Source: an uncultured Chloroflexia bacterium
GTDB taxonomy: Bacteria > Chloroflexota > Anaerolineae > Anaerolineales > Anaerolineaceae
Direction: 5' to 3'
Assembly: GCA_963704755.1 (NCBI GenBank)
Contig: OY969938.1
Location: 540,001 to 572,000 of the forward strand
DNA length: 32,000 nucleotides
Numbering within the stretch: the first letter of the stretch is position 1; every line of letters begins with the position of its first letter. Below, piece after piece: positions 1,998-13,040 of the stretch. The position numbers and the translations under genes are program-made. The notes beneath the pieces were generated by a model, which saw only the letters and a program-made list of their open reading frames with translations, was not told the origin of the DNA and ran no database searches.

Positions 1998-3182
1998 TTA
2001 TACCGCACACACCAGCCCTTTCAAATACGTTCCCTCCGGGAAATTCAACGCGACCGGGTGATCGGGGCCCTGGTGGAGGGTTTCGAGGATGCGCGCATCC
2101 ACCCCGGCGTCCAGGGCGGCCCCGGCTACGATCTTCTGGAACAGGTCGGCCGAAATACCGCCTGAACAGGAAAACGTGACCAGCAATCCGCCCGGCCGCA
2201 GCAGCTTGAAGCCTAACAAGTTGATGTCCTTATACCCGCGGGCGGCCCGCTCCGCCTGGGCAGCCGTCGGCGCAAACTTGGGCGGGTCCAAAACGATCAG
2301 GTCGAAGCTGCGCCGTGAGTCACGGAACGAGCGTAGTACGTGCCCCACGTCCCCCTTGATAATCTCCTGCTCGGCCGGCAGACTATTGAGGGCCAGATTC
2401 TGCGGCACCTGCCGCAGGGCATCCTCGGACGAATCGATCGAGGTGACCCGGGTTGCGCCGCCGGCCAGGGCATACGCCGAAAAACCACCGGTATAACAGA
2501 AGCAGTTCAGCACCTCGCGGCCGGCGCACAATTCGCGCACCCGCTGGCGGTTGCGGCGCTGGTCGACGTAAAAGCCGGTTTTTTGCCCGGCCAGCACGTC
2601 CACGCCGAACTTCAAGCCGTTCTCGCAAATCTCCACTTTGCCATCGAAAGCCGGGCCATAGACCTGCCCATTCCGTTCCGGCAGGCCCTCCAGCGTGCGC
2701 ACTTCGGCATCGGATCGCTCGACGATCTGGGTTACGTTTGGCAGCCCGGCAAGGATTTGAAAGATCTGCTCCCGCCAGCGCTCCGCCCCGGCCGTCAGCA
2801 ACTGCACCGACAGCACATCCCGGTAGCGGTCCACGATCAAACCCGGCAGCCCATCCGATTCGGCATGAACCAGGCGCAGCGCATCTGTCTCGCCCGCCGG
2901 AATGACCTGCTCGCGCAGCCGGACCGCCGCCAGGATCCGTCTTTGGAAGAATTCCACATCGATGGGTTCGTCCGCAGCAAAAGTCCACATGCGTGCCCGG
3001 ATCGATGAACTGGGGCTGTAAGCCGCCTGGCCCAATACTTCCCCCCTGGCCGACAGTACCATGACCGTTTCGCCGCTGGCCGGTTCCCCTTCCACCCGGG
3101 CAATTGCCCCTGAAAAAATCCACGGGTGGCGTAATAGCAGGCTTTTTTCACGGCCCGGTTTGAGAATAATGCTCGAGTCCAC
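1998..3182 (-). CDS. rlmI: 23S rRNA (cytosine-C5)-methyltransferase RlmI
   Basis: 394 aa, colinear with E. coli RlmI as I recall it. Motifs: LKPGREKSLLLRHPWIFSGAI (PUA-like N-terminus), ESDGLPGLIVDRY, motif I VLNCFCYTGGFS, motif IV DLIVLDPPKFA, and C-terminal PEGTYLKG. Confidence 0.88.
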   Translation of the reverse strand: MDSSIILKPGREKSLLLRHPWIFSGAIARVEGEPASGETVMVLSARGEVLGQAAYSPSSSIRARMWTFAADEPIDVEFFQRRILAAVRLREQVIPAGETDALRLVHAESDGLPGLIVDRYRDVLSVQLLTAGAERWREQIFQILAGLPNVTQIVERSDAEVRTLEGLPERNGQVYGPAFDGKVEICENGLKFGVDVLAGQKTGFYVDQRRNRQRVRELCAGREVLNCFCYTGGFSAYALAGGATRVTSIDSSEDALRQVPQNLALNSLPAEQEIIKGDVGHVLRSFRDSRRSFDLIVLDPPKFAPTAAQAERAARGYKDINLLGFKLLRPGGLLVTFSCSGGISADLFQKIVAGAALDAGVDARILETLHQGPDHPVALNFPEGTYLKGLVCAV

Positions 3183-3217
3183 TCAGCAAACTCCATTCAT
3201 TGTGGAAAGTTGTTATA

Positions 3218-3250
3218 GATGGAGGCAGAAACCAAACCTCTGCCTCCATC
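3218..3250 (-). terminator. hairpin downstream of ligA (12-bp stem, 9-nt loop)
   Basis: GATGGAGGCAGA-aaccaaacc-TCTGCCTCCATC lies 60 nt past the ligA stop on the transcribed strand. Confidence 0.5.
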
Positions 3251-3281
3251 GAAGGCACCCACACCTGTAACGCATTTATTG

Positions 3282-5394
<2,113 letters not shown>

Positions 5395-5574
5395 CTATCT
5401 CTGTACACAACTAAATCGCCTTTTTCCCGTATAATTAAACAGTAGTTTTTGTGTGTGATTTTTGGGAGCAAAGCCGTAAAAACCACACACAAAAATAAAC
5501 TGTTAGCAAACTGGCCTTAATCATAAATCATCTGAGATAGGACACCTCGGACAAAACACATGATTTTTGTCAAA

Positions 5575-5603
5575 TTGTCACCATCCCGGGTTGATGCTAC
5601 ACT
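5575..5603 (+). promoter_or_regulatory. candidate sigma70-type promoter for the 5.6-11.1 kb unit
   Basis: TTGTCA (5575-5580), 17-nt spacer, TACACT (5598-5603). TTGTCA is itself duplicated (TTGTCAaaTTGTCA). Confidence 0.3.
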
Positions 5604-5624
5604 ATTTTGTAAGCGGAGGTGATT

Positions 5625-5987
5625 GTGAAAGCCGGAAAACTGATTCTGTATATCGTTGCAGGTATCCTGATCTTCTTCGGTGTCCTGTTCATCTGGGGGG
5701 CCACCGGCGATCAGGGGAATATGGCCTGGATACCGGTTGGAATCATTACGGTCGCCATCGGCCTGATTCTGATTTATTTTGCTTCGCGCAGGCCCGCCGT
5801 GCCTGACCAGACCAACGTCACTTTGAAAGTCGATTTACCTGGGAATGTCGGCATGGATGCGATAAAATGCAAGTCTTGCGGGGGTACGTTGGGGCCTGAG
5901 GACATCAAAATGGTCGCGGGGGCGCCGGTGGTGACATGTCCATATTGCCATACCACTTACCAACTTACCGAAGAACCAAAATGGTAA
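5625..5987 (+). CDS. small membrane protein with C-terminal zinc ribbon
   Basis: GTG at 5625 lies 5 nt after GGAGG (5615-5619); the track start at 5619 overlaps the SD. Two hydrophobic helices (LILYIVAGILIFFGVLFIWGA, WIPVGIITVAIGLILIYFA) precede CKSC-x19-CPYC. Confidence 0.6.
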   Translation: MKAGKLILYIVAGILIFFGVLFIWGATGDQGNMAWIPVGIITVAIGLILIYFASRRPAVPDQTNVTLKVDLPGNVGMDAIKCKSCGGTLGPEDIKMVAGAPVVTCPYCHTTYQLTEEPKW

Positions 5988-6106
5988 TTAAATCGTTTTC
6001 ATCAGAGATCTGAAAGCGGGAAGCCTTTCCCCGAACAGGATTTACTCGAAAGTTACCCATATCTACCAATAAAAAAATAATTTCGACACCCTTCAGGGAG
6101 GGATCA

Positions 6107-7801
6107 ATGCGAAAAATTTATCCGTTATGGGCCTTGCTGCTTATTCTGCTGCTGGCTCTCCAGGTTGCGCCGGCTAACGCCCAAAACCTGGATTTTCAAG
6201 TGCCTCAACAGAACATTCAGGCCATCGTCAACTCCGATGGGACCCTTTCTCTGGACTACACTATCGTTTTTGCCAATAGCGCTTCCGGCGATGTCATCGA
6301 CATTGTGGATGTTGGTATGCCGAATTACGACTACGAAATCAGCTCGATGAGCGCCGAAATCGATGGTTACGCCGCAGAGGAAATCCTCGACTCTGAATAC
6401 GTCCACCCCGGTATCGAAGTCCACCTGGGTTCGCACAGCATCCAACCTGGCCAAACGGGCACACTGCACCTGCATGTCGGTACAGTCAAGAACGTCATTG
6501 GTCAATCGACGCTGGAAGAGTCCGAGCCTTATGCCAGCCTGGTCTTCAGCCCCAATTATTTCGACAGCAGTCTCGTCTCGGGTAAAACTGATTACACTGT
6601 TTCGCTGATCCTTCCGGCCGGGATGACTGCCGAAGAGCCGCGTTATCACAACCCCAGCAGCAACTGGCCGGGGGCTGACGCCGCTACCGCTTCGTTCGAC
6701 AGCCAGGGACGGGTTGTATATACCTGGACTTCCACCGACGCGTCCAGCGGCAAGGCTTACATATTCGGCGCCAGTTTTCCGGAACGGCTGGTTCCCATAA
6801 CCTCGGTCGTCGCCACCGAAACCCCCAACAACCGTACCATCGACACCAGCGGGATCTTTGGCTGCCTGTGTGTGGTGGGAATTTTGGGCCTTTTCACCGC
6901 ATTAGGGGTGGTTTCAGCCAACGCCAATAAGAAACGCCGTTTGCAATACCTGCCTCCCAAGATTTCAGTCGAAGGACATGGCATTAAACGCGGCCTGACC
7001 GCGGTCGAAGCTGCTATTCTGATGCAGACCCCGCTCGATAAGGTCATGACCATGGTCTTGTTCTCTACCTTAAAAAAGGAAGCCGCAACGGTAGAAACGC
7101 GTGACCCGCTTAAGCTGACCATCGCCGACCCGCTGCCCGAAGGCTTACAGCCTTACGAAGTCCTGTTCTTGACCGCCTTTAAAGAAACAAACGACAAAGT
7201 CCGCAAAGAAAAACTTCAGGACATGACCATCTCCCTGGTCAAGTCGGTCCAGGAAAAGATGAAGGGCTTTAGCCGTAAGGAGACCATCGACTATTACCAG
7301 GCAATCACCGAGAAGGCCTGGACGCAGGTAACCTCTGCAGACACCCCCGAGGTCAAATCGCAAGCCTACGAGCAGGTCATGGACTGGACCATGCTGGACC
7401 ATCAATGGGAAGATCGCACACGCACCACCCTGGGATCCGGACCGGTATTTGTGCCGACCTGGTGGTGGCGTTACGATCCGGTCGTGCGTGGTACTCAATT
7501 TGGCGGTGGCGTAGCTCATACGGCCGCGCCGGCCGGGATGCCATCCGCGGGTGGGCAGATCTCTATGCCCAAGCTGCCCGGCTCTGATTTTGCCGCCTCG
7601 ATGGTCAATGGGGTGCAAACGTTCTCGGCCGGGGTTATCGGCGGTGTGACCAACTTCACCAGCAACATCACCAACCGCACCAACCCGCTCCCCAAGCCAA
7701 GCAGCAGCTCATCCGGAGGCCACTTTGGCGGCGGCGGTGGTTGTGCCTGCGCATGTGCCTGCGCCGGTTGCGCCTGTGCCTGTGCCGGTGGCGGCCGCTA
7801 A
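6107..7801 (+). CDS. DUF2207-like membrane protein with C-terminal Ser/Gly linker and Cys-Ala repeat tail
   Basis: GGAGGG SD. Signal peptide ending APANA/QN, a ~230-aa beta-rich ectodomain, a TM helix (IFGCLCVVGILGLFTALGVVSA) followed by NANKKRR, then a soluble region (GLTAVEAAILMQTPLDKVMTMVLFSTLKK). It ends SSSSSGGHFGGGGGCACACACAGCACACAGGGR. The DUF2207 assignment is from memory of that family's architecture. Confidence 0.75.
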   Translation: MRKIYPLWALLLILLLALQVAPANAQNLDFQVPQQNIQAIVNSDGTLSLDYTIVFANSASGDVIDIVDVGMPNYDYEISSMSAEIDGYAAEEILDSEYVHPGIEVHLGSHSIQPGQTGTLHLHVGTVKNVIGQSTLEESEPYASLVFSPNYFDSSLVSGKTDYTVSLILPAGMTAEEPRYHNPSSNWPGADAATASFDSQGRVVYTWTSTDASSGKAYIFGASFPERLVPITSVVATETPNNRTIDTSGIFGCLCVVGILGLFTALGVVSANANKKRRLQYLPPKISVEGHGIKRGLTAVEAAILMQTPLDKVMTMVLFSTLKKEAATVETRDPLKLTIADPLPEGLQPYEVLFLTAFKETNDKVRKEKLQDMTISLVKSVQEKMKGFSRKETIDYYQAITEKAWTQVTSADTPEVKSQAYEQVMDWTMLDHQWEDRTRTTLGSGPVFVPTWWWRYDPVVRGTQFGGGVAHTAAPAGMPSAGGQISMPKLPGSDFAASMVNGVQTFSAGVIGGVTNFTSNITNRTNPLPKPSSSSSGGHFGGGGGCACACACAGCACACAGGGR

Positions 7802-9196
7802 ATGAAAGGTCGTTTTGTGACTGTTTCACCCAGGCGATTTTTATCGAAAATCTTTCCCGCTTCACCCGAAAAAGGCGCAGGTCCGCTGCCTGCGCCTGGT
7901 TTGTTCCATTTTCTACGCCAGAACGGTCCTGAAAAAGCACGGATTCACCTGCGCCTCGACCCGGACGGTACCGGTACGCTGCTGATCAACGCCAGCCGGA
8001 TCTTTCACCTCAACCCGACGGCAGCGCACATGGCTTACCTGAATTTAAATGAAATCCCTGAAGACCAGGTGATCGATCGTTTAACCAGGACATACAAGAT
8101 CAAACGCGAACAGGCCCGGGCCGACTACCTGGCATTGTCCAGCCAGCTCGATGAGCTCGTCCGCCCGGATGGCGCCTGCCCAATCTGTGATCTCGACCTG
8201 GAAACGACTGCACCGTTTTCGGCCCGGCCCAACAGCCCCTATCGCATGGACCTGGCCCTCACTTACCGCTGTAACAACAATTGCAGCCACTGCTATAACG
8301 CCAGGTCACGCAGCTTCCCGGAGCTCGGCCTGGAACAATGGCTGGCTATCATCGACCGCTTATGGGAGATCGGTGTTCCCCATATCGTATTCACCGGCGG
8401 CGAGCCGACCCTCTCGCGCTACCTGCCCGAGCTGATCGCTCACGCTGAAAAGAACGGGCAGATCACCGGGATCAATACCAACGGCCGCCGGTTGAAAGAC
8501 CCTGATTTCGTTCAAAAGCTGGTCGATGCCGGCCTGGATCACGCTCAAATCACGCTGGAATCGCATATCCCGGCCATTCACGACCAGATGGTCGCCGCAC
8601 CCGGCGCCTGGCAGGACACCATCCAGGGGTTGAAAAACGTTTTGGCCACCCGCTTGTTCGTGATGACCAACACGACCTTGTTGCAAAATAATTCGCCTTA
8701 CCTGGCCGATACGCTCGACTTCCTGGCCGGCCATGGCGTACCCACCGTCGGACTGAATGCGCTGATCTACTCGGGCAAGGGCGCCAATGTCAACACCGGC
8801 CTGCCGGCTGCGGACCTGCCTGCCCTGTTGGAAATCGCCCGGGCCAAAACAGCCCAATCCGGGCAGCGGCTGATCTGGTACACACCTACCGAATACTGCC
8901 ACTTCGATCCTGTCCTGCTCGAGCTGGGCGTCAAGGGCTGCACCGCTGCCTTGTACAATATGTGCATCGAACCGGATGGCAGTGTTTTACCCTGCCAATC
9001 CTATTACACCCCCCTGGGGAACATGCTCGAAACACCCTGGGAGCAAATCTGGAATCATGATTTGGCCGTTTCTTTGCGCGAACGGCGTAATCTGCCTGAA
9101 AAATGTAACGCCTGTGAACTGATCAGCGAATGTGGCGGGGGTTGCCCGCTCGAACGCCAGGCCCACGCTGAAACTGTATCATCTGCTCAGGATTAA
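7802..9196 (+). CDS. radical SAM/SPASM domain enzyme with N-terminal PqqD-like (RRE) domain
   Basis: The ATG immediately follows the upstream TAA. CxxxCxxC = CNNNCSHC (Cys157/161/164), GGE motif VFTGGEPTL, SPASM motif CNACELISECGGGC (Cx2Cx5Cx3C) plus 4 further upstream Cys. The N-terminal segment GTLLINASRIFHLNPTAAHMAYLNLNEIPEDQVIDRLTRTYKIKREQARADYLALSSQLDELV is PqqD-like. Confidence 0.9.
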   Translation: MKGRFVTVSPRRFLSKIFPASPEKGAGPLPAPGLFHFLRQNGPEKARIHLRLDPDGTGTLLINASRIFHLNPTAAHMAYLNLNEIPEDQVIDRLTRTYKIKREQARADYLALSSQLDELVRPDGACPICDLDLETTAPFSARPNSPYRMDLALTYRCNNNCSHCYNARSRSFPELGLEQWLAIIDRLWEIGVPHIVFTGGEPTLSRYLPELIAHAEKNGQITGINTNGRRLKDPDFVQKLVDAGLDHAQITLESHIPAIHDQMVAAPGAWQDTIQGLKNVLATRLFVMTNTTLLQNNSPYLADTLDFLAGHGVPTVGLNALIYSGKGANVNTGLPAADLPALLEIARAKTAQSGQRLIWYTPTEYCHFDPVLLELGVKGCTAALYNMCIEPDGSVLPCQSYYTPLGNMLETPWEQIWNHDLAVSLRERRNLPEKCNACELISECGGGCPLERQAHAETVSSAQD

Positions 9197-9223
9197 TCAC
9201 CTTTCCGATTTTCGGAGGTCACC

Positions 9224-10396
9224 ATGTTGGATAATCTTCGCAAACAATACAACCGGCTATTCAAACCGGCCCAACCGCTTCCATCCGGCATATACCATTA
9301 TCAGGCTCCACCTGATGCGCCTTTGCCATATCGCCTGCACCTGCGGGTCGATCCCAACAACGAAGGCATCCTGGTCGTCAACGCATCCACCGTGCTGCAT
9401 ATGAATGCCACTGCCTGCGAATATGCATATCATCTGATCAAAGGCAGCAGCGAAAAAGAGATCATACAAGATATTTCTTCGCGCTACCAAATTGACAAGC
9501 ATCAGGTTACGAAAGACTTTAAGATTTTCGAGGAACGCATCCGTTCTTTGATCGAATCGCCTGATCTGGACCCGGTCACTTTTCTGGATTTCGACCGGGA
9601 CGAAATTTATTCGGCCAACCTGAGCGCTCCCTTACGCCTGGACTGCGCGCTGACCTACCAGACTGTCGAAGACAAACCCGGAGAAAACACGCCGGTCGAG
9701 CGGGTGGACCATGAGTTGGTCACCGCCGAATGGATCCGTATCCTGGATAAGGCCTGGGAAGTGGGCATACCCCAGGCGGTGTTTACCGGCGGTGAACCCA
9801 CCTTGCGGCCGGATCTGGTGGACCTGGTCCAGCACACCGAGGACCTGGGTATGGTCGTCGGCATCCTCAGCGATGGACTGCGTTTTACCGATAACGAATT
9901 CCGCCACAGAATCCTGGCCGCCGGTTTGGACCACTTGATGCTGGTCCTGGACCCGGATAACGACCATTCCTGGGAAGCTTTGCGAGATACCCTGGCCGAG
10001 GACCTCTTCATCACCGTCCACCTGACCATTACTCCTGAGAACCAGGCGGATATACGCGGATTGATCTACAAACTCGCGGATATGGGCGTCAAATCCATCA
10101 GCCTGAGCGAGAGTGATCCCAGCCTGACGGCCACGTTGAATCAGGCCCGCGATCTGGCCGCTTTCCTGCAGGTCAGCCTGGTTTGGGATCTGCCGGTGCC
10201 CTATTCGCAGGCCAACCCGGTCAGCCTGGAATACGAAAAGATCGAAGATATCCCCCAGGGAGCCGGCAAAGCCTGGCTATACGTCGAGCCAGACGGAGAC
10301 GTTCTGCCGACCCAGGGTGTAACCACCGTGCTCGGCAATATGCTCACTGGTTCCTGGGATGCCATCTGGCAAAAGGCGCAAGAAACGGCCGCATGA
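9224..10396 (+). CDS. cluster-less paralog of the radical SAM/SPASM enzyme (pseudo-rSAM) with PqqD-like N-terminal domain
   Basis: GGAGG SD at 9214-9218. Alignable end to end with the 7802 gene: LHLRVDPNNEGILVVNAS vs IHLRLDPDGTGTLLINAS, VFTGGEPTL in both, and YVEPDGDVLPTQGVTTVLGNML vs CIEPDGSVLPCQSYYTPLGNML. CxxxCxxC is replaced by QTVEDKPGE, no SPASM cysteines remain, and the whole protein has only 2 Cys. Confidence 0.8.
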   Translation: MLDNLRKQYNRLFKPAQPLPSGIYHYQAPPDAPLPYRLHLRVDPNNEGILVVNASTVLHMNATACEYAYHLIKGSSEKEIIQDISSRYQIDKHQVTKDFKIFEERIRSLIESPDLDPVTFLDFDRDEIYSANLSAPLRLDCALTYQTVEDKPGENTPVERVDHELVTAEWIRILDKAWEVGIPQAVFTGGEPTLRPDLVDLVQHTEDLGMVVGILSDGLRFTDNEFRHRILAAGLDHLMLVLDPDNDHSWEALRDTLAEDLFITVHLTITPENQADIRGLIYKLADMGVKSISLSESDPSLTATLNQARDLAAFLQVSLVWDLPVPYSQANPVSLEYEKIEDIPQGAGKAWLYVEPDGDVLPTQGVTTVLGNMLTGSWDAIWQKAQETAA

Positions 10397-11136
10397 ACGC
10401 CCGCGAATGGGCAGATCGCTTCGAACAGCAGGCCGGTTGGACGCGCGCCATGCGCCAATATCTGCTGCAAACCTTGCAACTGCCCGAAAGCCCGCGTATC
10501 CTCGAGGTTGGCTGCGGAACCGCGGCCGTGTTGAAAGAATTCGACCCGAAAAATACCCGGGCCTGGGGACTGGACCTGCGGCTGGATTACCTGCACCTGG
10601 CTCGCAAGATATTCCCGCAAGCATCTTATACCTGCGGTGACGTCGCCTATCTGCCCTATCGAAAGTCCGGCTTCGACCTGTGCTATTGCCATTATTTCTT
10701 GATGTGGGTCGATGCAACCCAAGCGTTGGCCGAGATGGGCCGGGTGACCCGCCCGGGCGGCGCCGTGCTGGCCCTGGCCGAGCCGGATTATGGTGGGCGT
10801 ATCGATACCCCCGCCGAACTGGCTGTGTTGGGCCAACAGCAAACCCTGGCGTTAGCCCGCCAGGGCGCCGATCCATCCAGCGGGCGCAAACTGGCTGCTC
10901 TTTTCCACCAGGCCGGCCTGGCGGACATTCAGGTGGGTGTCATTGGAGCCAACTGGTCCATGACCGGCCGGGCGGCTGAATCGGTGCTGGAATGGAGCGT
11001 CCTCCGGGCCGATCTGCAGGGCACATTTTCCCCTGCCGACCTGGATCGCCTGGAAGCCATCGACCGCCAGGCCTGGGCTGCCGGTGAGCGCATCCTCTAC
11101 GTGCCCACGTTTTACGCCGTCGGGCGCGTAAACTGA
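10393..11136 (+). CDS. class I SAM-dependent methyltransferase
   Basis: The ATG at 10393 overlaps the upstream stop (ATGA). Motif I RILEVGCGTAAV, acidic loop GLDL, and GDVAYLPYRKSGFDLCYC. The track ORF start at 10183 is a spurious extension. Confidence 0.8.
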   Translation: MNAREWADRFEQQAGWTRAMRQYLLQTLQLPESPRILEVGCGTAAVLKEFDPKNTRAWGLDLRLDYLHLARKIFPQASYTCGDVAYLPYRKSGFDLCYCHYFLMWVDATQALAEMGRVTRPGGAVLALAEPDYGGRIDTPAELAVLGQQQTLALARQGADPSSGRKLAALFHQAGLADIQVGVIGANWSMTGRAAESVLEWSVLRADLQGTFSPADLDRLEAIDRQAWAAGERILYVPTFYAVGRVN

Positions 11137-11160
11137 GCCAACGGAAATTGAGCAAAAAAC

Positions 11161-11189
11161 TTGCCAAAAGCAGGGATGTGGAATATAAT
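11161..11189 (+). promoter_or_regulatory. sigma70-type promoter for tRNA-Pro
   Basis: TTGCCA (11161-11166), 17-nt spacer, TATAAT (11184-11189), ending 13 nt before the mature tRNA 5' end. Confidence 0.55.
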
Positions 11190-11202
11190 ACCCAACGTTG
11201 TT

Positions 11203-11279
<77 letters not shown>

Positions 11280-11295
11280 AAGAAAATAACGAGAT

Positions 11296-11342
11296 TACAT
11301 AGAAGGACCTCTGCCCAAAAGGGCAGAGGTCCTTCTATGTAA
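11296..11342 (+). terminator. long perfect hairpin after tRNA-Pro (about 21-bp stem, AAAA loop)
   Basis: TTACATAGAAGGACCTCTGCCC-aaaa-GGGCAGAGGTCCTTCTATGTAA. No U-tract follows. Confidence 0.55.
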
Positions 11343-11470
11343 TCAAGACTGAAACTCGGAAATATTGCCTCGCTACACAGGTATAATCATCAGGTGGTTG
11401 ATCATACATGTTTTGCAGTTGCAGAGACACAACTTAGTTTTTTTATCTTTTTGGTGTAAAGGGGAATAAC

Positions 11471-12067
11471 ATGTTCGCATTTCTATTCGTTATCCTTGGG
11501 ATCGCTGCGCTGGTGGTTTGCCTGGCCAGTCTGATTGCCTTGCATTTCCTACCCACAGGTTACAACCCGATCCGCGACGCGGTTAGCGATTACGGTGTCG
11601 GCCGGTTTGCCTACCTGTATGGAATTCAGGCTTTCACTTCGGGGATCAGCGGAGCGTGCCTTCTGGCAATTCTTTTTATGAAGGGCACAGGATTGCCTAT
11701 CGTGGGGATGGTTGCGCTGGGCTGCTACGCGCTCTCGCGGATGGTGATCCCGGCCTTCCCGACCGATCTGCAACCTCAACGCACGACCAAAGGGATGGTA
11801 CACATGATCCTGGCAATGTTTACCTTCACCGGGATCGCTGTCGCGGCGTGGATACTAACCGGCCCCATGGTACAGGCGATGGGATGGGAAGAGATTGCGG
11901 GGATATTGTCGGCTGCTTCCATAATCACATACCTTTCAGCGATTGGCGTGATTATGGTATCTTTGCTTCGTTCCCTGCGGTCTATCTTTGGATTGGTCGA
12001 GCGTTGTATTTACGTAGGCACAATATTCTGGTTGGGGACCATTTTTATAAAGATGCTGATGGGTTAG
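11471..12067 (+). CDS. polytopic membrane protein, DUF998-like
   Basis: 198 aa, about 6 hydrophobic helices. The N-terminal motif YNPIRDAVSDYG resembles DUF998 proteins as I remember them. AGGGGA SD. Confidence 0.6.
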   Translation: MFAFLFVILGIAALVVCLASLIALHFLPTGYNPIRDAVSDYGVGRFAYLYGIQAFTSGISGACLLAILFMKGTGLPIVGMVALGCYALSRMVIPAFPTDLQPQRTTKGMVHMILAMFTFTGIAVAAWILTGPMVQAMGWEEIAGILSAASIITYLSAIGVIMVSLLRSLRSIFGLVERCIYVGTIFWLGTIFIKMLMG

Positions 12068-12157
12068 TTTTGTTTTTTTTTATAAGGTTATAAGGGTTCT
12101 GGTTCGGAATTTATTCGCTTACTTTTTATACAAGCACGCGCAGGTTAAAATCCTTCG

Positions 12158-12206
12158 CATCAATCAATAAAAGACTGCCCAGAATGCAGTCTTTTATTGA
12201 TTGATG
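12158..12206. terminator. 21-bp perfect hairpin between convergent genes (possible bidirectional terminator)
   Basis: CATCAATCAATAAAAGACTGC-ccagaat-GCAGTCTTTTATTGATTGATG. Confidence 0.5.
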
Positions 12207-12510
12207 TAGTTTTTCTTGGTCCAATCAACCAGGAAGTATTTTGAACCGAATCGGAATTTTTTCGCAATATGCACTCAAAGCCGCCCTGGTTTTGAGGTCA
12301 AGCCAAAACGGCAAAAAAACTATACCCATGGTGAAATTATGAGCGTGGCCGAGTTACGATCATTTTTACCAATATGGCGTATCGAACCGGGTAACATTCC
12401 CGTCTCCTGGATTCACCTTTGGCAATTACTATCCAGAATCGTTTCAACCAAAAATCCTATGCTTACCTTAAAAAAGGATATCCCCAAAAATGTTGCCGTC
12501 CACAAAAACC

Positions 12511-12933
12511 TTAGCTCAAGGCTTTGGCTTCCTCATTAAGTAGCTTTTCCTCATCTGTTTGCGGTACAAACTTGAGTCCGTGAGGCAGAGGCTTTCCGTC
12601 GAGAGTCACATGCACAAAGGTGATAAAACCTCGCACACAGGGTTTCTCATGAACCTTGACTTCGATATAAGATACGATCCTGGATCTACCGGTCAAGACG
12701 ATCCGGCTTGTAAATGTAACCAGGTCACCATTCTGTATCGGGTGGGTAAAAGCCATCCCATGAACTTTCAAGCAAACGATATTTTCCGGCTTGGTTTGTG
12801 AGGCGGCCGCAATAAAACCTGATTCGACAAACCATTCTGCTGTTCGCCCGGCAAATAAAGTCCCGTGGTGATTTAGGTCTTCCCCTTTTACCAATCGCAT
12901 CGTTGAATAAACCGGATACTGCGCTATTTCCAT
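12511..12933 (-). CDS. acyl-CoA thioesterase, hotdog fold (BFIT/YciA-like)
   Basis: 140 aa. LVKGEDLNHHGTLFAGRTAEWFVESGFIAA and VHGMAFTHPIQNGDLVTF match the acyl-CoA hydrolase hotdog pattern. Confidence 0.75.
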   Translation of the reverse strand: MEIAQYPVYSTMRLVKGEDLNHHGTLFAGRTAEWFVESGFIAAASQTKPENIVCLKVHGMAFTHPIQNGDLVTFTSRIVLTGRSRIVSYIEVKVHEKPCVRGFITFVHVTLDGKPLPHGLKFVPQTDEEKLLNEEAKALS

Positions 12934-12985
12934 TTCCTCTTCTCCAAATAATTCTATCTAACTGCTCAAGCTAACGAGCAAAAAT

Positions 12986-13040
12986 CCCGAATTTGAGGTG
13001 TTTGCGGGGGCGACATCCCCGCAAACACCTCAAATTCGGG
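12986..13040 (-). terminator. 24-bp perfect hairpin downstream of the transketolase-family gene
   Basis: CCCGAATTTGAGGTGTTTGCGGGG-gcgacat-CCCCGCAAACACCTCAAATTCGGG. A second 13-bp imperfect hairpin lies at 13066-13111. Confidence 0.5.

Follow-up and report, generated by a model that had tools for sequence, protein, structure and literature searches.

We analyzed a window of 32,000 nucleotides (nt) from the genome of an uncultured Chloroflexia bacterium (GenBank assembly GCA_963704755.1, contig OY969938.1, positions 540,001 to 572,000 of the forward strand), in which five genes at 5625-11136 on the plus strand, here called A to E, probably form a protein-maturation cassette similar to those of peptides that ribosomes make and that are modified after translation (RiPPs). 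The likely substrate is the cytoplasmic, cysteine-rich C-terminal tail of the membrane protein B, and the likely maturase is C, a predicted radical S-adenosylmethionine (SAM) enzyme with an N-terminal RiPP recognition element (RRE) and a C-terminal SPASM domain. The cassette consists of the following open reading frames (ORFs).

5625-5987, plus strand: gene A, with an in-frame GTG alternative start at 5619.
6107-7801, plus strand: gene B, 564 amino acids (aa).
7802-9196, plus strand: gene C, 464 aa.
9224-10396, plus strand: gene D, 390 aa.
10393-11136, plus strand: gene E, 247 aa.

A first-pass annotation of this DNA, made from the sequence, had described five co-oriented, closely spaced genes, and the ORFs on the plus strand agree with that description at each junction: the stop codon of B and the start codon of C abut (TAA then ATG, 7799-7804), C and D are separated by a 27-nt gap with GGAGG ahead of 9224, and D and E share an ATGA overlap at 10393-10396. 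It had also reported no small precursor-like ORF in the intergenic gaps, and on checking, Cys-rich small ORFs were absent there. Its interpretation stands in part, and its core proposal, that the tail of B is the substrate of the adjacent enzyme, withstood the refuting conditions that the annotation had set. The association of the tail with an RRE-containing radical SAM enzyme is upheld by the data below, and we found no curated family, source annotation or paper describing the cassette, whereas the substrate relationship and the chemistry are what we infer from sequence.

Protein B ends in ...GGGGCACACACAGCACACAGGGR, as previously annotated. Two elements near this end are central to the argument.

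7742..7798, plus strand: C-terminal tail CACACACAGCACACAGGGR, aa 546-564, with the pattern CxCxCxCxxCxCxCxGGGR-COOH, read from the sequence; the proposed modification site.
7655..7693, plus strand: leader-like motif FTSNITNRTNPLP, aa 517-529, with the consensus FT..(I/V)T..TNPxP, from an alignment of B homologs.

A (CA)n...GGGR tail ends 120 of the 120 best B homologs, down to 50% identity, and nearly all of these tails are exactly CACACACAGCACACAGGGR. Among the 150 best representatives of clusters formed at 50% identity, 118 carry the tail, 100 of them with the strict motif and 18 with variants that include CACACACVSCACACAGGGR, ...DS..., ...AS... and CACACACACAGGGR; the remaining 32 are mostly fragments, with alignments that stop short of the C-terminus. 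The Cys positions are constant throughout and the x positions change now and then, while conservation extends beyond the Cys to the Ala residues, the Gly in the center and the terminal GGGR, and the motif holds in B homologs down to ~30% overall protein identity. On these alignments, the conservation of the tail is far beyond chance. At the DNA level, 93 tails of the common type (type 1, defined below) from different genomes are encoded by 92 distinct sequences, in which each position shows all of its synonymous codons, with six codons for Arg, and all three stop codons occur. This indicates that what is under selection is the peptide, not a repeat in the DNA. A search for a curated model of the tail alone found none.

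The leader-like motif is common to the type-1 proteins of all phyla and lies about 15-25 residues ahead of the Cys block. Its invariant columns in B are F517, T518, T525, N526, P527 and P529, and the Ser/Gly/Arg linker that connects it to the Cys block varies in length and composition. Type-2 B proteins have LSG.D..T.(D/E).F.AL instead of this motif, followed by a poly-Gly linker, so that tail type, leader-like motif and radical SAM clade change together. By analogy, and judged from the alignments, a putative recognition motif, a spacer and a core would give B the layout of a RiPP precursor appended to a membrane protein.

B is predicted from hydropathy to be a bitopic membrane protein with one transmembrane (TM) segment, and hydropathy together with an AlphaFold2 (AF2) model computed with 53 homologs divides it into the following parts.

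aa 1-25: signal peptide (hydropathy).
aa ~30-225: extracytoplasmic beta-sandwich (AF2, predicted local distance difference test (pLDDT) >90).
aa about 247-272: TM helix, then KKRR (hydropathy and AF2).
aa ~299-445: cytoplasmic helical domain (AF2).
C-terminal: disordered linker and Cys tail (AF2).

Since the TM segment is followed by KKRR, the C-terminal ~290 residues are predicted to be cytoplasmic. The tail would then face the cytoplasm, where radical SAM enzymes work. A Foldseek search with the model of B returned a generic beta-sandwich likeness to M1 aminopeptidase N-domains and to ribophorin, which gave no functional lead. B had no Pfam or NCBIfam match even at E<=10. The earlier designation of B as DUF2207-like, with PF09972 expected on 6107-7801, thus finds no support from profile searches, and we rejected the assignment to DUF2207 (PF09972/PF20990) on this basis; DUF2207 or BatD appears only in the source-given names of two B homologs. 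The family is large, with 814 clusters at 50% identity and E<=1e-3, and its ectodomain and cytoplasmic domain are themselves well conserved. On one 7.4-kb contig (L204), a split or rearranged B relative was observed at 5650-7431, in which the ORF for the cytoplasmic half ends in an acidic GGHD/SGYD repeat, not in a Cys tail, and is directly followed by an ORF for a B-type ectodomain; no radical SAM gene is present on this contig. We counted this single case, a Cys-free acidic tail with no radical SAM gene adjoining it, in favor of the maturation cassette.

By profile matches and modeling, C has every domain expected of a radical SAM/SPASM peptide maturase with an RRE. The three Pfam domains expected on 7802-9196 all scored above their cut-offs, with 26.1 bits for PF05402 (PqqD; cut-off 23.4), 85.2 bits for PF04055 (cut-off 29.5) and 42.1 bits for PF13186 (cut-off 21.5). 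The AF2 model (pLDDT 87, predicted TM-score (pTM) 0.87) contains an N-terminal domain, a TIM-barrel-like core and a C-terminal Cys-rich domain, with these landmarks.

aa ~33-119: RRE (PF05402; 4 strands and 3 helices in the AF2 model).
C157/C161/C164: CxxxCxxC, present in 80/80 C homologs.
Cys 366, 380, 398, 435, 438, 444 and 448: SPASM cysteines, each present in 79-80 of 80 homologs.

Structural comparison of C with the PDB placed SkfB, SuiB and CteB at the top, all solved RRE-containing radical SAM RiPP maturases that align over the full length, and the anaerobic sulfatase-maturating enzyme (anSME) at a middle rank. By sequence, the best PDB relative is again SkfB (6efn, E 2.4e-20, residues 51-419, RRE included). 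The first-pass annotation had anticipated no named radical SAM maturase family for C, and none of the NCBIfam families reached its cut-off. Against cofactor-related radical SAM families, C scored 122 bits for NirJ2, the best match (cut-off 500), 105 for AhbC (cut-off 650), 105 for PqqE (cut-off 381) and 77 for MftC (cut-off 265). It scored 71.8 bits against SkfB (TIGR04403, cut-off 300), 71.1 against StsB (NF045574, cut-off 625) and 56.1 against the ACGX-repeat family (TIGR04340, cut-off 400); WgkB was also among the weak matches, and the models of the CteB/SCIFF and SuiB families gave nothing at or near cut-off.

To survey the tail, we scanned one genome per species for DNA able to encode CACACAGCA, which returned at least 120 loci. 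About 115 of the 120 listed matches form the extreme C-terminus of a B-family protein, and the tail was seen on B-family proteins only. The bacterial carriers include Anaerolineae and other Chloroflexota, Planctomycetota (Pirellulales, Thermoguttaceae), Acidobacteriota, Aminicenantes, Zixibacteria, Fermentibacteria (Ca. Sabulitectum, Hyd24-12), Coatesbacteria, Hydrogenedentes, a Clostridia metagenome-assembled genome (MAG) and proteobacterial MAGs. The Asgard carriers are Promethearchaeota, Hodarchaeota and Heimdallarchaeota, and later look-ups added Bathyarchaeia. The loci fall into two types. Type 1 combines the tail (CA)3-5 G (CA)3 GGGR with the gene order A-B-C-[D]-E, and type 2 combines the tail (CA)2-3 G (CA)4 GGGR with the gene order A-C-C'-B-E, in which C' has no CxxxCxxC triad and keeps the SPASM-type Cys. 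Clustering of the ORFs of the 120 listed loci revealed four recurring families only (B, C/D, E and A). Among these ORFs there was no recurrent protease, peptidase or transporter, and genes for heme d1, heme b or pyrroloquinoline quinone (PQQ) did not recur either. The flanking genes vary from locus to locus.

The co-localization of tail and enzyme can be read from both sides. Starting from the tail, a same-strand C/D homolog lies in the 8-kb block of 75/80 type-1 loci with at least 1.5 kb of downstream sequence, and likewise in 7/7 type-2 loci with at least 1.5 kb upstream. For the count from the enzyme side, we scanned metagenomes with a C profile and kept the best 80 relatives (Anaerolineae); a tail ORF ends at most 400 nt upstream in 61 of the 71 close C homologs, and within about 1.7 kb in six more. 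The adjacency of a Cys-tailed protein to the radical SAM enzyme, which had been proposed as a check on the system, therefore holds in these three counts, across phyla and even in rearranged gene order. A search that used a Promethearchaeota enzyme as its seed gave a sample drawn independently of the tail, six distant C homologs of archaea. Two of them belong to Bathyarchaeia A-B-C loci with the variant tails CVCACA(N/S)CACACACVSCACACAHGGAR, and a third has B 2.6 kb upstream of C. An archaeal-looking contig (L205, 1022-5472) has the order A-B-C with the tail CVCACANCACVCACVSCACACASGGGGVG and no adjoining methyltransferase gene; a gene for a 268-aa radical SAM protein and two ATP-binding cassette (ABC) exporter genes lie upstream, and a Band_7/zinc-ribbon gene follows on the other strand. 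The variant tails of the Bathyarchaeia and of L205 still adjoin C.

As a separate observation, an ORF of ~115 aa with sub-threshold PAS-fold matches (~20 bits) occurs in 12 loci (L014, L020, L028, L040, L043, L044, L062, L068, L088, L113, L117 and L120), mostly from Anaerolineales, with L068 labelled Syntrophothermus; it is not found in the window. It usually lies just after C (between C and D if D is present), where some of these loci have an extra insert of 1-2 kb, and in L088 it is found on the far side of A, not within the cassette.

D and C are clear paralogs, 31% identical over 414 columns (E 4e-63). D has two Cys, neither of them at the CxxxCxxC or SPASM positions, and members of its family mostly have 1-3 Cys. 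D retains a GGE motif and, in the RRE region, an R.HLR motif (shared with C), both at least 90% conserved, and its Radical_SAM match is weak. The assignment of an N-terminal PqqD-like domain to both proteins with the radical SAM fold is sound for C; in D, PF05402 scores 19.1 bits and stays below the cut-off of 23.4, yet many D homologs carry this domain and the region aligns with the RRE of C. The first-pass annotation had listed the cluster-less paralog as part of the system, but D does not belong to its core. D is found in Anaerolineae cassettes and is absent from most other phyla, being missing from the Asgard, Zixibacteria, Coatesbacteria, Fermentibacteria and Aminicenantes cassettes. This indicates that D is a lineage-specific accessory. 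In the type-2 loci L022, L050, L054, L060 and L089, the second radical SAM paralog without CxxxCxxC keeps 5-6 C-terminal SPASM-type Cys. A dead radical SAM partner is thus seen in both cassette types, in two states of decay, with both Cys sets lost in D.

E is a class I SAM-dependent methyltransferase, with 59.3 bits for PF08241 (cut-off 21.2) and 55.0 bits for PF13649 (cut-off 27). Its best NCBIfam scores all fell short of the cut-offs (BioC 55.6 against 185, DVU_1556 52.1 against 155, MenG 46.9 against 327). The gene is conserved in the cassette across phyla and adjoins C even where B is absent. The best PDB match of E is LahSB (6uak, E 2.6e-9, 40 bits), limited to the SAM-binding core (residues 31-129). 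LahSB methylates the C-terminal carboxylate of lanthipeptide RiPP precursors (PMC11285071). Such chemistry would fit a motif that is always C-terminal, although the match to E covers the generic SAM-binding core, from which the methyl acceptor is not inferable.

A is a 120-aa protein with two TM helices predicted from hydropathy and a C4 zinc ribbon (C84/C87/C107/C110, numbered from the 5619 start), for which the Pfam zinc-ribbon matches are weak. Its start is most likely the GTG at 5625, as first annotated, since the GTG at 5619 is too near the GGAGG at 5613-5617 and the gene call of the source is 120 aa long. The copy in the window terminates in EEPKW. CxxC...CxxC and a terminal ..PKW are present in 75/75 full-length A homologs, usually in the form TEEPKW, and the ..PKW end spans Chloroflexota, Planctomycetota, Zixibacteria, Aminicenantes and one archaeal locus. 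This second invariant C-terminus of the cassette, which the first-pass annotation did not mention, might serve for docking or be another place of modification. Gene A is present in cassettes across bacterial phyla; it was not detected in three Asgard loci that bear B-C-E (L059, L084 and L104, with little upstream sequence in L104), and it is absent near orphan C+E pairs.

We propose the following scheme for the cassette. The N-terminal RRE of C would bind the leader-like motif of B, and the radical SAM site would take a hydrogen from the tail while a SPASM auxiliary cluster binds a Cys thiolate, so that a Cys-centered modification would result. D, where present, may be a catalytically dead, RRE-bearing partner that helps to bind or present B. 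E would supply a methyl group, for which the free carboxylate at the C-terminus is a possible acceptor, as suggested by the position of the motif, which is always exactly C-terminal. A may act as B's structural partner, or it may be another target. It is quite conceivable, if somewhat short of probable, that the RRE-radical SAM/SPASM enzyme converts the invariant tail to a new crosslinked or cofactor-like structure on the full-length membrane protein. As to the chemistry, the resemblance of C to SkfB and CteB and the invariance of the Cys alone make intramolecular thioether crosslinks, of the sactionine or ranthionine type, the most plausible form, and we suggest it tentatively. A thioether "ladder", in which the tail is folded back at the central Gly with every Cys facing an Ala, is a speculation; a thiolate array holding a metal is another possible form of the converted tail.

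In outline, the cassette would be of a known kind, an RRE-radical SAM/SPASM maturase with an adjacent Cys-rich substrate. It departs from this kind in four respects: a large membrane protein would contribute its tail as the substrate, the core is near-invariant across domains of life, a dead paralog may be present, and a membrane zinc-ribbon protein accompanies the enzyme. To our knowledge, nearly all known radical SAM/SPASM enzymes with an RRE make small peptides that are secreted. SkfB (6efn; TIGR04403), the best structural match of C (TM-score 0.75 on target), likewise has an N-terminal RRE, a radical SAM core and a C-terminal auxiliary-cluster domain. This sporulation killing factor sactisynthase makes a Cys-S to C-alpha thioether, the type of chemistry that we suggest for the tail. 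Its auxiliary domain is of the twitch type, whereas C has the full 7-Cys SPASM, and its substrate is a small leader-bearing peptide, whereas that proposed for C is the tail of a 564-aa membrane protein. The CteB/SCIFF ranthipeptide maturases and SuiB (streptide) share RRE, radical SAM and SPASM domains with C over a full-length alignment, and SCIFF precursors are Cys-rich. Their substrates are peptides of ~45 aa, however, and neither has a cluster-less paralog or a membrane-protein substrate. SkfB and CteB, among the top structural relatives of C, make Cys thioethers, whereas SuiB makes a Lys-Trp C-C bond.

Precedents for SPASM enzymes whose Cys targets belong to a protein, not to a short peptide for secretion, are QhpD/QhpC and anSME: QhpD introduces Cys thioethers into the gamma subunit of amine dehydrogenase, and anSME turns Cys into formylglycine. 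Unlike C, anSME has no RRE, and its sulfatase motif, C-x-(P/A)-x-R or more broadly (C/S)-x-(P/A)-x-R, does not occur in the tail of B, where x-(P/A)-x-R comes after none of the Cys; genes for a sulfatase or an amine dehydrogenase were not found near the cassette. The ACGX-repeat system (TIGR04340, of the type described by Haft and Basu) similarly places a SPASM radical SAM enzyme beside an Ala/Cys/Gly repeat and is known from comparative genomics alone, but here the repeat is the nearly invariant C-terminus of a large membrane protein. Finally, the pseudo-SAM/SPASM proteins of TIGR04347 are radical SAM-fold paralogs without CxxxCxxC, as are D and the second paralog of type 2; D scores 43.8 bits against this model (cut-off 525) and differs in having no SPASM Cys and an RRE-like N-terminus.

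Several points weigh against the maturation of the B tail by C. The proposal draws on gene context and homology, and the counts come from an Anaerolineae-heavy sample in which conserved ligA synteny inflates them. Within 5 kb of three of the six distant archaeal C homologs (L206, L208 and L210), neither B nor any other Cys-rich ORF was found, and two of these loci (L208 and L210) keep E. Conversely, five tail loci (L006, L009, L027, L030 and L046) have no radical SAM gene in their sequence block. In favor of the proposal, the Planctomycetota MAG with the orphan tail protein of L027 also has a tail-C-E cassette on another contig (L074), and in four loci (L082, L108, L144 and L154) one enzyme set accompanies two tail-bearing B paralogs that lie in tandem; by analogy, the tandem and orphan tail proteins resemble the arrangement in multi-precursor RiPP clusters. 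Two further points against it are that CxC repeats are classic metal-binding motifs and that A, given its own invariant C-terminus and the Lys-Trp crosslinking of the SuiB type, could itself be the target.

These last points belong to an alternative in which the tail is a metal- or Fe-S-binding module and C acts elsewhere, most plausibly on the ...EEPKW end of A (e.g., by a Lys/Trp crosslink), or on a small molecule. We regard it as unlikely. CxCxC spacing is typical of thiolate metal clusters, as in metallothioneins, and the C+E pairs without B in L208 and L210 are readily placed here, as are the retention of ..PKW and the zinc ribbon in all A copies, the rank of SuiB as the second-best structural match of C and the weak match to WgkB. 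However, A was not detected in three Asgard loci with B-C-E and is absent from the vicinity of orphan C+E, B and C abut stop to start, and tail type, leader-like motif and radical SAM clade switch jointly. The conserved Ala, central Gly and GGGR, together with the upstream leader-like motif, suggest recognition by an enzyme over simple chelation.

A second alternative, which we consider improbable, regards B as a membrane-tethered precursor, with the modified tail or a small product derived from it released as a cofactor-like or signaling molecule (cf. PQQ, mycofactocin, pearlin). The strictly C-terminal position of the motif after a disordered linker would suit such a release, PqqE and the mycofactocin maturase are among the best NCBIfam scores of C, and L205 has its two ABC exporters and small radical SAM protein just upstream. 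The cassette as a whole, though, has no recurring protease, peptidase or transporter, and the confinement of the tail to B-family proteins with conserved ecto- and cytoplasmic domains argues that the whole protein is the functional unit.

It is highly improbable that C and D are NirJ/AhbD/PqqE-like cofactor enzymes that stand beside B by inherited synteny with no functional link. This is what the top NCBIfam matches (NirJ2, AhbC, PqqE, AhbD) and the conserved upstream ligA synteny in Anaerolineae would favor, but the scores lie 4-6 fold under the family cut-offs, C has an RRE domain, the recurring genes include none for heme d1, heme b or PQQ, and the association persists in distant phyla, in archaea and in rearranged order; the explanation is largely refuted and effectively excluded. 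That the tail is a low-complexity or (TGCGCC)n microsatellite artefact at the 3' end of the gene, as the repetitive look of the window's tail DNA might suggest, is refuted by the 92 distinct DNA sequences found for the same 19 residues and by the invariance of the motif at 30-50% protein identity.

The surroundings of the cassette in the window contain the following elements.

5575..5603, plus strand: promoter-like site 5' of gene A, TTGTCA-17-TACACT with a TG extension, weak (9/12 in a consensus scan).
5446-5495: 18-nt inverted repeat TTTTTGTGTGTGATTTTT / AAAAACCACACACAAAAA with 14 nt between its arms, in the divergent ligA/gene A intergenic region.
3310-5337, minus strand: ligA, the divergent upstream neighbor of gene A.
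1998-3182, minus strand: gene for a PUA + SAM-dependent RNA methyltransferase of the RlmI type.
11203-11278: tRNA-Pro(GGG), directly 3' of the methyltransferase gene E, closing the cassette.
11295-11342: perfect 20-bp hairpin, 3' of the tRNA gene.

The inverted repeat could function as an operator or as an element akin to a bidirectional terminator. In several Anaerolineae genomes, ligA and the RlmI-type gene keep synteny with the cassette, a lineage synteny outside the system. The G+C content is 59-64% in the 1998-5337 region versus 42% at 12001-13000. Ahead of the tRNA gene, within 11161-11342, stands a promoter-like site close to consensus (TTGCCA-17-TATAAT, 11/12). An Rfam scan of 5000-12000 revealed nothing beyond the tRNA and a sub-threshold chance match on the inverted repeat at 5446-5495 (MIR403, 28 bits versus 70). 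PADLOC gave generic radical SAM-core matches to pVip (51 bits) and a generic methyltransferase match, and no specific defense-system model.

The strict conservation of a 19-residue tail across bacteria and archaea, about as tight as may be expected of any short motif, implies that it serves a precise chemical purpose. The existence of cultured carriers, namely Ornatilinea apprima, Bellilinea caldifistulae and Thermanaerothrix, makes the system directly testable. Solving it would provide radical SAM enzymology with a new substrate class and probably with a new Cys-based modification, and would exemplify a catalytically dead radical SAM paralog as a working partner. It would also give a function to the abundant "hypothetical" B family of Anaerolineae, Planctomycetota, Asgard archaea and others. 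If the proposal is true, the modification is ancient or widely transferred, given its occurrence in at least 10 bacterial phyla, Asgard archaea and Bathyarchaeia, and the B proteins would constitute, among the envelope-spanning proteins of anaerobes, a functional class that is new.

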